64,000 bases of DNA from Candidatus Roizmanbacteria bacterium. Lineage in GTDB: Bacteria; Patescibacteriota; Microgenomatia; UBA1406. Made by a program: the position numbers and the translations under genes. The stretch spans positions 96,626-160,625 of the forward strand of contig JANLHL010000016.1 of the NCBI GenBank assembly GCA_024654535.1. Direction: 5' to 3'. Positions 2-25,776 of this stretch are shown piece after piece. Numbering within the stretch: position 1 is the first letter of the stretch; each line of letters begins with the position of its first letter. Below the pieces are notes generated by a model. That model was not told where the DNA came from, did no database searches, and saw nothing but the letters and a program-made list of their open reading frames with translations.

Positions 2-772
2 AAGTCGGGTGCTTACCTTATGGCGGATATCGCACATCTTTCCGGTCTCATTGCAGCAGGTGCGTATCCATCACCAGTACCCTATGTACATATTGTAACG
101 ACAACGACACATAAAACTCTCCGTGGTCCACGTGGTGCCATGATAATGGTTACAGATAAGGGTCTCAAAAAAGACGCATTGTTGTCTGATAAAATAGATA
201 AATCTGTGTTCCCTGGTCTTCAAGGTGGGCCTCATTTAAATACAATAGCTGGCATAGGTGTTGCACTTCATGAAGCAAATACTACTCGATTTAAAAAATA
301 TGGAAAACAGGTAATTCAAAATGCTAAAACACTTGCGAGTGAGCTTTTGAAATACAATTTCACTTTAGTTGCTGGAGGTACCGATTCTCACCTGATTCTT
401 ATAGATCTTAGTAATAAAAAACTTCTTGGTAATACAGTAGCTGAGGCGCTTGAGTATGTTGGTATTGTAGCCAACAAAAATTCGGTGCCGTATGACAAAA
501 ACCCACCATTTTATCCGTCTGGTCTTCGCATAGGTACTCCTGGTATTACAAGTCGAGATATGGGTAAGAGAGAAGTGAAAATTATTGCAAAAGTAATACA
601 TAAAACTGTTGAAGCTGTCTATACACATAAAATAAAAACTCTAAAAAAAGATAGTCTTGAAAAAAAGAAATCTGTTCGTAGACTCCTGATTAAGGGAACT
701 GAAGAGTTACGTGCGCTTCGGTCAATAATTCTTGAGCTATGCCAGCAATTTCCTCTTTGTGATACGTATTAG
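2..772 (+). CDS. glyA: serine hydroxymethyltransferase, C-terminal part (5' end outside window)
   Basis: Frame is open from the window edge. 'GAYLMADIAHLSGLIAAG...VTTTTHKTLRGPRG' carries the SHMT PLP-lysine motif TTTTHKTL. Confidence 0.9.
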   Translation, partial: KSGAYLMADIAHLSGLIAAGAYPSPVPYVHIVTTTTHKTLRGPRGAMIMVTDKGLKKDALLSDKIDKSVFPGLQGGPHLNTIAGIGVALHEANTTRFKKYGKQVIQNAKTLASELLKYNFTLVAGGTDSHLILIDLSNKKLLGNTVAEALEYVGIVANKNSVPYDKNPPFYPSGLRIGTPGITSRDMGKREVKIIAKVIHKTVEAVYTHKIKTLKKDSLEKKKSVRRLLIKGTEELRALRSIILELCQQFPLCDTY

Positions 773-21930: not shown

Positions 21931-22575
21931 TTATTGACTACAACTCTGCACGGCCTTACTGGCTGCACTAAGACAGTAACGACTATCTGCCCCAAATACA
22001 TTATTACTAATATCTATACCCGTGGACCCAGCTACTGCACATGTCTGAGTTTGCATTGATGCAGTACTAACCCCATCACACGCTGGAACATTACCAATAT
22101 CCCACGGCAATCTACCACAATCTATTACAACATTAATAGGGACTCTAGGCTGTAAACCCCTACATGAATTTCCACCTGAAGAGCTCGGCTGAGATGCTGC
22201 AGGTTGCTGAAAGACAGGTACCTGAGTAGGCATGGGTTGCGGGGTATTTGTAGGGTACACCGGTTGTGGTTCATCTTGCTGAGGATAGTTTTCAGTGCGT
22301 GAGGGAGGATTCCCAACATCAAAAGTAGGCATTTCTATTTTACTTGCAAAACCTACGAGCGCAGCTATCCCAAGAATGGCTCCAATAGAGCCAAACATAA
22401 CAAGCATCACTGCTAAATAGCTCGATCCAGATTCATTTTTAAACAATTCTAAAACACGAGACTGCAATGCATTTTTGTCATTAGACTCGCCAGTAACATC
22501 ACTTTCGGAGAATCCCAGTTCGCCCATCTGTACCTGTTGATTTAAATAGTTCAGAAGCTGTGACGTTTCATGCAT
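21931..22575 (-). CDS. hypothetical membrane-anchored protein with Pro/Gln-rich linker and Cys-rich C-terminal domain
   Basis: One TM segment (SYLAVMLVMFGSIGAILGIAALVGF) and a P/Q-rich stretch. Multiple Cys residues occur in the last ~90 aa. Confidence 0.45.
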   Translation of the reverse strand: MHETSQLLNYLNQQVQMGELGFSESDVTGESNDKNALQSRVLELFKNESGSSYLAVMLVMFGSIGAILGIAALVGFASKIEMPTFDVGNPPSRTENYPQQDEPQPVYPTNTPQPMPTQVPVFQQPAASQPSSSGGNSCRGLQPRVPINVVIDCGRLPWDIGNVPACDGVSTASMQTQTCAVAGSTGIDISNNVFGADSRYCLSAASKAVQSCSQ

Positions 22576-22666
22576 ATTTGTCTATATAATATATAGAATG
22601 TACTATAGTATATCACAAATGCTATGGTTTATACATACTTAGTGTGTAATATGTATATTATAAGCA

Positions 22667-24913
22667 CTATATATTCAAAGTACGTTTTAAGTATACACCA
22701 GTGTACGAACTAGCTGTACGCGCTATTTGTATAGGCGTTCCTTGTGCAACTATAGTTCCACCTTTTTCTCCTCCCTCCGGGCCAAGGTCTATTACCCAAT
22801 CAGCATTCTTAATGAGATCTAAGTTGTGTTCAATGATAAGCACCGTGTTGCCATTATCGACCAACCTATTCAATAGTCTCAATAACTTTTCGATGTCCGC
22901 AAAGTGAAGGCCCGATGTTGGCTCATCTAAAATATAAAATTCGCCTTTCGCCTGAAGCTTGCTTGCAAGTTTTAGTCGTTGCGACTCACCACCTGACAAC
23001 GTATCGAGTGTCTGTCCCATTTCTATATAGTCTAGACCAACCTCTTCAAGTAGGCTCATTGGCTTCTGTATATCAGCTGAATCAAAAAATTGCTTCATTT
23101 CCGATGCTGTCATAGCAAGTACTTCAACAATATTCTTACCTTTGTAGCTATATCTCAATACCTTCTCTTTATATCGAGAGCCGCCACAACTTTCACATTT
23201 TATTTTTACATCTCCCAAAAAATTCATGTCCATATCAATATAACCTACGCCTTTGCAAAGCTCACACCCACCATGACTGTTGAAACTAAATAAACTTGGA
23301 TGTAGCCCATGCTCATGAGCAAAAAGAGTACGTATATAGTCAAATATACCAACATAGGTAGCTATACAACCCCTCCTGTTGGCACCAATTATTGATTGAT
23401 CAATCAATACAATTTTATTTGCATGTTGGCTTTTTATCTCTTCAACCAATGAGCTCTTACCTGAACCAGACACGCCTGTAAGGGCAACTAATACTCCCGT
23501 TGGTATCGACACATCTATGTTCTTTAAATTATGTCGCGTTGCTCCAGTGACAGTCAACGAACTGCTCACGCGCCTATACTTTTCTTTAGTACCCATACAC
23601 TTACTTTTGTTGAGATAGGTACCAGTGAGAGAGTGTTCATGTACTATAAGTTCATCTATGGTACAGCTTGCAACAATCTGTCCACCATGTTTACCACCAC
23701 CAGGTCCTACCTCTACGATATGATCTGCACTGCGTATGACTGTCTCATCATGTTCAACAACAATAACTGTGTTGCCATTGTTTCGAAGTCTCTGTAGGTT
23801 CGCTACAACATGCGAAACGTCTCGCGGGTGAAGCCCAGCGGTCGGTTCATCGAGCACGTATACCGTCTCGATAAGATCACAACTTAACTGGCGAGCCATT
23901 TTTACTCTCTGTGCTTCACCGCCCGAAAGAGTGTCAGCCGACCTATTTAGTGACAAATATCCCACACCAACATTAATTAAGCCTTGCAGTTGATCTATCA
24001 GTCGAGGCTTTATCGCCTGCGCATTTTTATGATCAATACTTTTTATGAATGCGAGACATTGTTCAAGTGGCATATTGGCAACTTCCCCTATATTTTTTCC
24101 CTGTAGACGAACATCGAGTGACTTGCTATTCAACCTACCTCCGTGACATTCTAAACAATCAACAAGGTCAAAGTAGCGCATATCATTTTCAGACAAGCTC
24201 CGATGAGTATTGTTGTTGCGATGGATGATACGATGTACCACGCCCTGAAACGTCCAACGGTCTATGAACTCGCCACTTACTGACTGCAACATTTCAGGAG
24301 GAGCATATAGTATCTTCTCTATTTCTTCAGCATCATAATCGCATAGCTTTTTATTCATATCAAAATATCCTGTCGCTTTTACAATACTCCACTGTCGGCC
24401 ACCCACATACCAGTCGCTGGGAAGTATGGCGCCTTCATTAAGACTTTTATCCTTATCTATTACTTTACTTTCATTTACTTCTACCGCACGCCCTAAGCCT
24501 TTACATTTTTTGCATGCACCATAGGGATGGTTAAATGAGTAGTATGATGAATCCATAGAAGGCAAGCCAACACGCGAGTAGAGAAGTCGCAAATATGTGT
24601 ACGCCTCTGTCAACGTCCCGACAGTTGAACGCGGATTACCGCGCACTCTGTCTTGACTAATCACTATGGACGCTGATACCCCTTTAATTTCATCAACCAG
24701 TGGCCGATTGCTTTTATGAAGATACCGTCGAGCATAAGAGGGGAGCGATTCAAAATACTGCCTCTCACCCTCTCGTGCAATAATATCAAACGCTATAGTC
24801 GACTTACCAGAACCAGAGACACCAACAAAGCAGACTACTTTGTTCCTTGGAATTACCAAGTCTATATTTTTGAGATTATTTTCTTTTGCTCCTCGTATGA
24901 CAATGGTGTTCAT
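22667..24913 (-). CDS. UvrA-like ABC ATPase lacking the UvrB-binding domain (UvrA paralog, class II/III type)
   Basis: Two ABC modules: Walker A 'GVSGSGKST' twice, and signatures 'LSGGEAQR' and 'LSGGESQR'. 'LLYSRVG' runs almost directly into 'YSFNHPYGACKKCKGLG', so the ~115-aa UvrB-interaction insert of canonical UvrA is absent. 748 aa. Confidence 0.85.
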   Translation of the reverse strand: MNTIVIRGAKENNLKNIDLVIPRNKVVCFVGVSGSGKSTIAFDIIAREGERQYFESLPSYARRYLHKSNRPLVDEIKGVSASIVISQDRVRGNPRSTVGTLTEAYTYLRLLYSRVGLPSMDSSYYSFNHPYGACKKCKGLGRAVEVNESKVIDKDKSLNEGAILPSDWYVGGRQWSIVKATGYFDMNKKLCDYDAEEIEKILYAPPEMLQSVSGEFIDRWTFQGVVHRIIHRNNNTHRSLSENDMRYFDLVDCLECHGGRLNSKSLDVRLQGKNIGEVANMPLEQCLAFIKSIDHKNAQAIKPRLIDQLQGLINVGVGYLSLNRSADTLSGGEAQRVKMARQLSCDLIETVYVLDEPTAGLHPRDVSHVVANLQRLRNNGNTVIVVEHDETVIRSADHIVEVGPGGGKHGGQIVASCTIDELIVHEHSLTGTYLNKSKCMGTKEKYRRVSSSLTVTGATRHNLKNIDVSIPTGVLVALTGVSGSGKSSLVEEIKSQHANKIVLIDQSIIGANRRGCIATYVGIFDYIRTLFAHEHGLHPSLFSFNSHGGCELCKGVGYIDMDMNFLGDVKIKCESCGGSRYKEKVLRYSYKGKNIVEVLAMTASEMKQFFDSADIQKPMSLLEEVGLDYIEMGQTLDTLSGGESQRLKLASKLQAKGEFYILDEPTSGLHFADIEKLLRLLNRLVDNGNTVLIIEHNLDLIKNADWVIDLGPEGGEKGGTIVAQGTPIQIARTASSYTGVYLKRTLNI

Positions 24914-24917
24914 AAAT

Positions 24918-24972
24918 TTGACAATTAATATGTAGTTGCATATAATAAACTATTACGTTACGTCATTGTCAA
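24918..24972. promoter_or_regulatory. overlapping divergent promoters with MerR-type 19-bp spacer and operator dyad
   Basis: Plus strand: TTGACA(24918-24923)-17 nt-TATAAT(24941-24946) toward the merR-like gene. Minus strand: TTGACA(24972-24967)-19 nt-TATTAT(24947-24942) toward the uvrA-like gene. The imperfect dyad ATTACGT-T-ACGTCAT (24952-24966) lies inside the 19-bp spacer. Confidence 0.55.
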
Positions 24973-24978
24973 GCGCAT

Positions 24979-25776
24979 ATGAAAAACTATATAACAGTGG
25001 GTGAGTTTGCAAAACTTGCTTCAACAACAAAGAGAACTATCCAATTTTATGACGAAAAAGGAGTACTAAAACCTATAAAAAGAGATGGAACGAACTATAG
25101 ATACTACCTTGAAGACCAGATCCTCGATTTTCAACGGATACTCCTTTTGTCTAACCTCGGCGTATCGCTAGACGAGATGAAACTGTTTCTCAAAAGAAGA
25201 GGTAATTTATCATCTCTCTTTAACAAGAAAAAAGGTCTTATTCAGAATGAAATACAATTACTTCAATTTAACTTAAATAGTCTAACTATGTTCGAAAAGA
25301 ACCTAACATTAAACGGGACTATGATACAGCCTGTAACTAGAAATCTGAAACCATTTAGTCTTTACTACATAGATAAACTTGGATCGTATGCAAAGATAGG
25401 GGAGTATTGTGAAGAACTGTATACCATGTTTGAAAACAGAGGTGAGAACTTTACAACCCTAGCAATTTTTGAGGAACAAGGGTATCGCCCAAAGAAAAGC
25501 AGAATAAAAATTGGCGCATTAGCAACAAAAAACATGAAGGTAAAGAAGGAATATACATCTGTCGTTAACTATATGAAGTTCAAGCCAGGAAAATTTCTTA
25601 CCTATACCCACAATGGATCCGGCAATTTACTTTCACTCTTTTGGAAAGAACTTGAAAAGTATGCAAAGCTGCATACTATAAAAATCAGAGAAAATGTGGC
25701 CGACTTTGAAATTTATCGCAAAGTAAACAGTGACGTAACGAAGCAATTTTTTGAGATATATTTACCAATTGAATAA
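24979..25776 (+). CDS. MerR family transcriptional regulator with C-terminal GyrI-like ligand-binding domain
   Basis: 'ITVGEFAKLASTTKRTIQFYDEKGVLKP...RYY' is the MerR HTH, followed by a coiled-coil. The ~150-aa C-terminal domain ends 'FFEIYLPIE', as in GyrI-like/BmrR-type effector domains. Confidence 0.85.
   Translation: MKNYITVGEFAKLASTTKRTIQFYDEKGVLKPIKRDGTNYRYYLEDQILDFQRILLLSNLGVSLDEMKLFLKRRGNLSSLFNKKKGLIQNEIQLLQFNLNSLTMFEKNLTLNGTMIQPVTRNLKPFSLYYIDKLGSYAKIGEYCEELYTMFENRGENFTTLAIFEEQGYRPKKSRIKIGALATKNMKVKKEYTSVVNYMKFKPGKFLTYTHNGSGNLLSLFWKELEKYAKLHTIKIRENVADFEIYRKVNSDVTKQFFEIYLPIE

Follow-up and report, generated by a model that had tools for sequence, protein, structure and literature searches.

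Among the described UvrA paralogs without a UvrB-binding domain are Ecm16, DrrC and the UvrA2 protein of Deinococcus radiodurans, whose domain architecture (PMC10192343; class IIa as defined in PMC9328131) is identical to that of a UvrA-like ATPase encoded in a 64,000-nucleotide stretch of Candidatus Roizmanbacteria DNA (contig JANLHL010000016.1, positions 96,626 to 160,625; hereafter the window, meaning the whole stretch analysed). Ecm16 confers resistance to echinomycin in the absence of UvrA, UvrB, UvrC and UvrD, with ATPase activity being required, and has a preference for drug-bound DNA (PMC9328131, PMC10192343), and its authors regard the role of such paralogs outside antibiotic producers as an open question (PMC9328131). 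As for the control of the gene, MerR regulators are known to work on promoters with spacers of 19-20 base pairs (bp), and both the 19-bp requirement and the unpairing of a central A:T have been documented for EcmrR, BmrR and CueR (PMC8113463).

In the window, which has about 38% G+C and carries housekeeping genes such as gyrB, gyrA, typA, lepA and pyruvate kinase, the UvrA-like gene lies head to head with a gene for a MerR-type regulator, the two open reading frames being separated by 65 bp (24914-24978):

22667 to 24913, minus strand: UvrA-like ATPase gene, 748 amino acids, class II architecture (open reading frame; matches to models NF001503 and TIGR00630 and to PDB structures)
24979 to 25776, plus strand: regulator gene, 265 amino acids (Pfam, PDB profile search, AlphaFold2 and Foldseek)

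Reasoning largely by analogy, this cassette would most likely be an inducible shield against DNA-binding toxins, where a ligand-sensing regulator switches on a UvrA-like ATPase that is unable to dock UvrB, a reading that is held with somewhat more confidence than doubt. Its host agrees with the reduced and probably partner-dependent bacterium that a first-pass annotation of the same DNA had supposed, being a member of the candidate phyla radiation (CPR, or Patescibacteria).

A promoter of MerR-type geometry and its conservation

The intergenic region was described in the first-pass annotation as holding two overlapping divergent promoters, TTGACA-17-TATAAT and TTGACA-19-TATTAT, with an imperfect dyad inside the overlong spacer of the latter, and the coordinates of these elements proved correct:

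24942 to 24972, minus strand: UvrA-like promoter, with -35 TTGACA (24972-67), 19-bp spacer (24966-48) and -10 TATTAT (24947-42); sequence, conserved
24918 to 24946, plus strand: regulator promoter, with TTGACA (24918-23), 17 nucleotides and TATAAT (24941-46); 12/12 consensus match
24951 to 24967, strandless: operator dyad of 17 bp, centred on 24959, which is spacer position 8; conserved in related promoters

The -10 elements of the opposing promoters overlap with an offset of one nucleotide, and the pattern TTGACW-N19-TATWAT occurs nowhere else in the 64 kilobases (kb), where 0.11 copies would be expected by chance. The dyad of the window, ATTACGT-T-ACGTCAT (24952-24966), is complementary at six of seven positions and has no operator-like counterpart elsewhere in the window; it departs slightly, as a degenerate version, from the family consensus TATAACGT-w-ACGTTATA, whose unbroken version is TATAACGTAACGTTATA. 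In the MerR family, as in the bmr, copA and merT promoters, the spacer usually has 19 bp and the centre of the dyad falls near its position 8. As the predicted start of the regulator transcript lies inside the operator, autorepression of the regulator is implied, which is of a kind known from the mer operon. Judged from its sequence, the layout is one of MerR-type activation, and it resembles the BmrR/EcmrR type of promoter in the 19-bp spacer, the position of the dyad and the A:T centre (PMC8113463).

Exact-protein look-ups led to eight lineages, and in all of them (8/8) a MerR/GyrI gene of 265-272 amino acids diverges from a UvrA-like gene of 741-749 amino acids, the remaining neighbours being different in each case. 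Moreover, when 185,579 species genomes were scanned with a profile of the regulator, a search in which detection depended on exact peptide patterns, 35 CPR loci were obtained, whose titles include Roizman-, Gottesman-, Ames-, Woese-, Beckwith-, Shapiro- and Dojkabacteria, WWE3 and one Saccharibacteria genome. The Beckwithbacteria locus L027 belongs to a closed genome (CP011210.1). The partner of the regulator in 31 of these 35 loci is a full-length UvrA-like gene, and not a multidrug efflux pump, placed directly upstream on the opposite strand among unrelated flanking genes. This synteny across CPR classes, kept while the flanks vary, strengthens the proposal that both genes form a combined functional unit.

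The promoter toward the UvrA-like gene reads TTGAC[T/A]-19 bp-TAtnaT in every one of the 35 promoters examined, so that a chance occurrence is ruled out by the conservation of the same architecture. Among the 31 unique promoters, the consensus dyad is centred on spacer position 8, with half-site symmetry in 27-31 of them at offsets 1-4, 6 and 7 and an A or T as the central base in 29. In two loci the half-site changes are compensatory, being paired so as to preserve the symmetry: ATTACGT/ACGTAAT (L020) and ACTACGT/ACGTAGT (L009; L numbers designate the related loci). The position of the dyad is thus invariant, and the imperfect repeat of the window becomes near-perfect in its relatives. Cassette anatomy, gene pairing and the geometry of promoter and operator are directly established, and the strict conservation of the operator and the 19-bp promoter points to gene control as the selected function. 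It is very probable that the regulator binds the dyad and exerts a MerR-type control on the UvrA-like promoter.

The opposite promoter, that of the regulator, has the conserved form TTGAC[A/T]-16..18-TAT[A/T/C]AT in 19 of 30 loci (TACTAT in L008), and several loci with short intergenic regions carry for the regulator an extended -10 element, TGnTATAAT, instead. In L017, L019, L022, L031, L037 and L040 this extended -10 is TGCTATAAT in place of TTGACA-17-TATAAT, and L046 has TGATATAAT. The intergenic region spans 39-53 bp in 11 loci (L017, L019, L022, L030, L031, L033, L035, L037, L040, L043 and L046), and there the ATG of the UvrA-like gene falls 6-10 nucleotides past the -10 element, which would result in leaderless or near-leaderless mRNAs and therefore supports the promoter assignment independently.

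Each locus contains the operator motif a single time, the sole extra matches being CCGACGTAACGTTGG (L003:10857, and the same place in L004 and L005) and ATGACGTTACGTTGT (L044:5578). The former, a weaker operator-like sequence, lies about 240 bp upstream of an open reading frame of 310 amino acids of unknown function, and might be a second target of the regulator. With regard to host range, the records of nine loci (L015, L017, L018, L021, L029, L034, L035, L039 and L043) are labelled as uncultured Gammaproteobacteria or Bathyarchaeia, which is probably a matter of mislabelling or wrong binning, the cassette having otherwise turned up in records labelled as Patescibacteria only.

A few loci depart from the common arrangement. 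In L021 (L021:2494-4001, DATKWK010000023.1), the regulator and the 19-bp promoter drive a short-chain dehydrogenase (adh_short_C2, 1e-59), and the UvrA-like gene is reduced to a C-terminal remnant of 83 amino acids, which amounts to a natural swap of cargo; a sensor and promoter in charge of such an enzyme fit a xenobiotic-response switch. In a WWE3 locus (L028:1-4001, LCJU01000045.1), the UvrA-like gene is split by an element of the IS3 insertion sequence (IS) type (HTH_Tnp_1 plus rve), and what remains of the gene is separated from the conserved promoter by an open reading frame of 268 amino acids without known identity. In L042 (L042:700-4813, JBAXGO010000002.1), the regulator is a distant one (43% identity) and is accompanied by a single-module "half UvrA" of 436 amino acids, in which ATPase module I and the insertion domain are joined to the last part of module II; its operator is degenerate, its -10 element is TAAAAT, and an MsbA-like ATP-binding cassette (ABC) exporter gene is convergent. 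Other distant regulators (39-42% identity) were found in different contexts in L044 and L045.

The regulator and its GyrI-like domain

The regulator is divided into three parts:

24979 to 25194, plus strand: MerR winged helix-turn-helix, amino acids 1-72 (Pfam MerR_1, 1.4e-14)
25207 to 25314, plus strand: coiled-coil helix of 36 residues, amino acids 77-112 (AlphaFold2 model)
25327 to 25773, plus strand: GyrI-like ligand domain, amino acids ~117-265 (Pfam, 3.6e-5; structure model)

The GyrI-like Pfam match reaches 24.5 bits, slightly below the cut-off of 26, and PF06445 is present in most homologues. The AlphaFold2 model (predicted local distance difference test, pLDDT, 89.6) shows the helix-turn-helix followed by the helix and an alpha/beta domain, and the profile of the regulator family finds EcmrR, BmrR, SkgA and BrlR in the PDB. 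Modelling thus confirms a MerR protein of the BmrR/EcmrR type with a GyrI-like fold, so that the BmrR-type regulator of the first-pass annotation, for which the Pfam score had been below cut-off, is upheld by the predicted structure. Length and three-part fold are shared with the regulators of the BmrR-bmr, EcmrR and BrlR systems, and the GyrI-like domain probably senses a small-molecule signal.

For the C-terminal domain, the Foldseek matches are CTR107, CtaZ (7zhe), Lin2189 (5x5m), SAV2435, SbmC and the albicidin-binding STM3175 (7r3w). As this set includes Lin2189, STM3175 and the closthioamide binder CtaZ, the regulator itself could be regarded as the main resistance factor, either by sequestering the toxin in the manner of TipA, AlbA and STM3175 or by hydrolysing it, as Lin2189 does, whereas the UvrA-like protein would be a helper that deals with residual adducts. 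Protection from yatakemycin and CC-1065, both of them DNA alkylators, is indeed provided by GyrI-like cyclopropanoid hydrolases (PMC5684135). However, the best and only full-length structural matches found by Foldseek are the transcription activators BrlR, EcmrR and BmrR, and the operator and 19-bp promoter are strictly conserved, all of which makes this explanation distinctly improbable.

In any case, two differences set the cassette apart from BmrR-bmr. The output of the circuit is a DNA-binding UvrA-like ATPase and not an efflux pump, and the regulator gene is divergent and reads from an overlapping promoter, whereas bmrR is placed downstream of its target. Divergent regulators with overlapping promoters are also found in the mer operons of Tn21 and Tn501.

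The UvrA-like ATPase

The following features were located in the UvrA-like protein:

24800 to 24823, minus strand: Walker A of ATPase module I (GVSGSGKS, amino acids 31-38); family-invariant
24545 to 24574, minus strand: junction RVGLPSMDSS (amino acids 114-123), which replaces the UvrB-binding domain and zinc module 1 (alignments to class I and class II)
24146 to 24514, minus strand: zinc module 2 (C134, C137, C253, C256) around the insertion (DNA-binding) domain of ~115 amino acids (CxxC positions; alignment)
23453 to 23476, minus strand: Walker A of ATPase module II (GVSGSGKS, amino acids 480-487); family-invariant
23186 to 23266, minus strand: zinc module 3 (C550, C553, C573, C576) (CxxC positions; family-invariant)

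Domain models and alignments agree with the earlier claim that the 748-residue protein lacks the UvrB-binding insert, and indicate that zinc module 1 has gone with it; both ATPase modules, the insertion domain and zinc modules 2 and 3 are kept. Class I UvrA proteins, which are the best overall match in sequence and fold, have both the UvrB-binding domain (~140 residues) and zinc module 1, and lack the ligand-sensing promoter of the CPR gene. The peptide LLYSRVGLPSMDSSYYSFNHPYGACKKCKGLG fuses segments that are held apart by 141-147 residues in class I UvrA, the place of which is occupied by two residues in a MAFFT alignment. Against the class I UvrA of Thermotoga maritima, residues 1-117 and 114-748 align, and the gap drops target residues 118-255. 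In the same way, residues 119-747 align to positions 264-942 of the NCBIfam model NF001503, with 827 bits against a cut-off of 1147, and the TIGR00630 UvrA model gives 798.7 bits against one of 729.8, which explains the public label of "UvrA". Some members of the CPR family are labelled "DrrC" or "UvrA" by NCBI.

The insertion region aligns with those of the T. maritima and Bacillus stearothermophilus UvrA proteins, and its match to PF17755 (UvrA_DNA-bind) is weak. Zinc modules 2 and 3 have their counterparts in C176/C179/C296/C299 and C589/C592/C612/C615 of Ecm16, respectively (PMC10192343). The LSGG signatures, at residues 329 and 639, are family-invariant, and an alignment of 20 family members has a mean column identity of 77%, with the Walker A and signature motifs and the cysteines of zinc modules 2 and 3 invariant throughout, which speaks for a strong constraint on the parts that are kept. 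A structure model of moderate confidence (pLDDT 74) gives a TM-score of 0.85 to UvrA structures (C. thermocellum UvrA). The protein is 66-92% identical across CPR classes, an unusually high level that points to either a strong constraint or exchange within the group.

A candidate shield against DNA-binding toxins

The most likely pathway would start with a dimeric regulator sitting on the 17-bp dyad, within the over-long 19-bp spacer of the UvrA-like promoter. Free of ligand, the regulator would keep this promoter off and block its own divergent promoter. A small DNA-binding xenobiotic, probably planar or hydrophobic, would then fill the GyrI-like pocket, and the dimer would kink and under-twist the spacer. 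The resulting product, a double ABC ATPase of the UvrA type that would be unable to recruit UvrB, could bind the drug-distorted duplex through its insertion domain and zinc modules. Finally, ATP hydrolysis would serve to remove the bound drug or render it harmless, in the way that has been shown for Ecm16 and put forward for DrrC. What the ligand is, that its binding activates the promoter and how the ATPase acts on drug-bound DNA are inferred. For the effector step, a UvrB-independent and ATP-driven handling of drug-bound DNA by analogy with Ecm16 and DrrC (PMC9328131, PMC10192343), the chances may be regarded as even or slightly better.

An additional possibility concerns the operator DNA, which could itself form part of the sensor, so that induction would report DNA-bound drug and not only free drug in the pocket. 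The operator core (24955-24963) consists of two ACGT tetranucleotides 1 bp apart and is invariant in 29-31 of the 31 promoters, and bis-intercalators that bracket CpG, such as echinomycin, bind ACGT by preference, each molecule unwinding DNA by ~20 degrees (PMC9328131). A drug bound to the spacer could contribute to the under-twisting needed by a 19-bp promoter, or could alter the grip of the regulator on DNA. Neither ACGT nor CpG is unusually rare in the window (ACGT is present in 175 copies), and the tandem ACGT core is thus notable only because it is conserved. This extension of the mechanism is highly improbable.

Several points weigh against the shield as a whole. One of them is that, by sequence, the CPR UvrA-like proteins are nearer to class I than to Ecm16 or D. 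radiodurans UvrA2. Among PDB entries, the bit scores for class I proteins are 669 (T. maritima, 3pih, 8e-200), 645 (B. stearothermophilus) and 625 (Mycobacterium tuberculosis), and those for class II proteins are 572 (Ecm16, 7sh1, 2e-170) and 514 (D. radiodurans UvrA2, 2vf7, 8e-153). The junction and insertion region taken alone give the same order, and structure-guided identity is 42-43% to class I UvrA as compared to 36-37% to Ecm16 and D. radiodurans UvrA2. The transfer of function from Ecm16 therefore goes by architecture and not by orthology. A second point is that an unrooted neighbour-joining tree of four class I, ten class II and 11 CPR proteins, built without Ecm16, DrrC and D. radiodurans UvrA2, resolves three clans (class I, class II and CPR), with the CPR proteins nested in neither of the other two. 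In addition, antibiotic biosynthesis genes were not seen in the window or in the flanks of the related loci, what class II UvrA proteins do in non-producers is not settled (PMC9328131), the family is known here from its sequence and predicted structure, and the promoter assignments presume that sigma-70 rules hold for the CPR RNA polymerase.

The class II proteins of this tree were taken from plasmids of Firmicutes, Actinobacteria, Proteobacteria, Deinococcus and a haloarchaeon. With regard to the UvrA of DrrC/Ecm16 type put forward in the first-pass annotation, the architecture is indeed shared, but the protein does not nest within the sampled class II set; nor does it cluster with canonical class I UvrA in this tree, the CPR proteins forming a clan of their own. 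Identities of this clan are 42-46% to class I and likewise to class II. The deletion junction of the CPR proteins is that of the plasmid-borne class II UvrAs, whereas the motif after the junction is "GAC..C" as in class I and "GMCP.C" in the sampled class II proteins. In an exhaustive search of 1.84 billion representative proteins, the family corresponds to about one single-length cluster at 50% identity (P0255), and no single-length class I UvrA scored at least 730 bits, which argues against a recent origin of the family by deletion from a close class I gene. Conceivably, the CPR clade is a third line of UvrA proteins, in which the loss of the UvrB-binding domain took place separately from that in class II. 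The same protein library contains well over 100 clusters (within P0241-P0390) of double-length UvrA fusions, of 1.3-2.3 thousand amino acids, some of which look like tandem copies without the UvrB-binding domain.

The proximity to class I, together with the TIGR00630 score above cut-off, could also indicate a general sensor or repair factor for DNA damage, acting as a back-up, as a UvrB-independent branch or as the only UvrA of the cell, with the MerR protein sensing an endogenous stress. Class II UvrA adds slightly to ultraviolet tolerance in Xanthomonas and Pseudomonas (cited in PMC9328131). Moreover, no canonical uvrA, uvrB or uvrC was seen in the 64-kb window, and a search of the window and the related CPR loci (489 kb) with Escherichia coli UvrB and the UvrB-binding domain gave nothing, a sample too small to weigh much or to conclude that excision repair is absent. 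However, the domain needed for UvrB loading is missing from the protein, and its gene is controlled by a regulator with a ligand pocket of the multidrug-sensing type. Only 36 matching loci, moreover, were found in the 185,579 species genomes, as detected through exact peptide patterns, and the variation of the flanks, together with the loss, replacement or IS disruption of the gene in L021, L028 and L042, indicates an accessory rather than a core gene. A role in general repair is consequently unlikely, if less so than a regulator acting as the resistance factor.

Another context for UvrA-like proteins is the MADS anti-phage system, which includes two of them, Mad3 and Mad8, as well as Mad1, a small helix-turn-helix protein resembling MerR, and a MADS-related system would account for the PADLOC profile matches of the pair (mad3, 2.8e-81; mad8, 2e-33; mad1, 4.4e-10). 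Yet housekeeping class I UvrA proteins score higher on mad3 (E. coli 342 and Priestia 393 bits, versus 272), which reduces these matches to generic UvrA homology. MADS is, besides, an eight-gene operon with mandatory MAD6, MAD7 and MAD8 and restriction-modification-like parts (preprint 10.1101/2023.03.30.534895), and genes of a MAD-type operon flank the pair in the loci of none of the eight lineages. Given the generic scores and the missing operon context, membership was rejected as scarcely credible. As a side note, the mad3 and mad8 profiles match every UvrA tested, and are a likely source of false defence-system calls.

Returning to a shield against DNA-binding toxins, the nearest architectural relatives differ from the CPR cassette in their setting. 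Unlike Ecm16, DrrC and UvrA2, the CPR gene has a dedicated MerR/GyrI sensor and lies outside an antibiotic biosynthesis cluster, so that self-resistance of a producer is not a suitable explanation. The plasmid-borne class II UvrA genes of Firmicutes, Actinobacteria, Proteobacteria and Deinococcus, with the same architecture and junction, often adjoin genes for regulators of small-molecule type or of mobile elements. In ten such loci inspected, the neighbouring regulators were of the YafY, MarR or TetR families or were absent, and a MerR/GyrI partner was found in none of them. These drug-type TetR, MarR and YafY neighbours offer a supporting hint for a response to drugs.

Each part of the cassette is of an already known kind, and the CPR clade is distinct from the characterised class II UvrA proteins. 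What the combination offers is a multidrug-type MerR/GyrI sensor wired to a DNA-acting protein instead of an efflux pump, and our literature search, among 8 million papers, found no account of a UvrA-like gene served by its own MerR/GyrI sensor, nor any usable statement on the uvrABC content of CPR bacteria. Since the paralog is hard-wired to its own ligand sensor, the ligand range of the regulator provides a direct experimental route to the natural substrates of the protein. To our knowledge, CPR bacteria have not been grown alone and almost nothing is known about their gene regulation. The locus also represents a rare readable regulatory circuit of these bacteria, with consensus promoters of sigma-70 type, a defined operator and, in some lineages, predicted leaderless transcripts.

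Two minor observations concern the surroundings of the UvrA-like gene. An open reading frame of 214 amino acids (21931-22575, minus strand) lies on the same strand, 91 bp downstream; its product is rich in Pro and Gln, contains a single hydrophobic segment as well as cysteines close to the C-terminus, has no Pfam match and is not kept beside the cassette in the other loci. Finally, the region of the UvrA-like gene (22001-24000) has a G+C content of 41%, as compared to 32-39% in the 8 kb upstream and 38-39% downstream.

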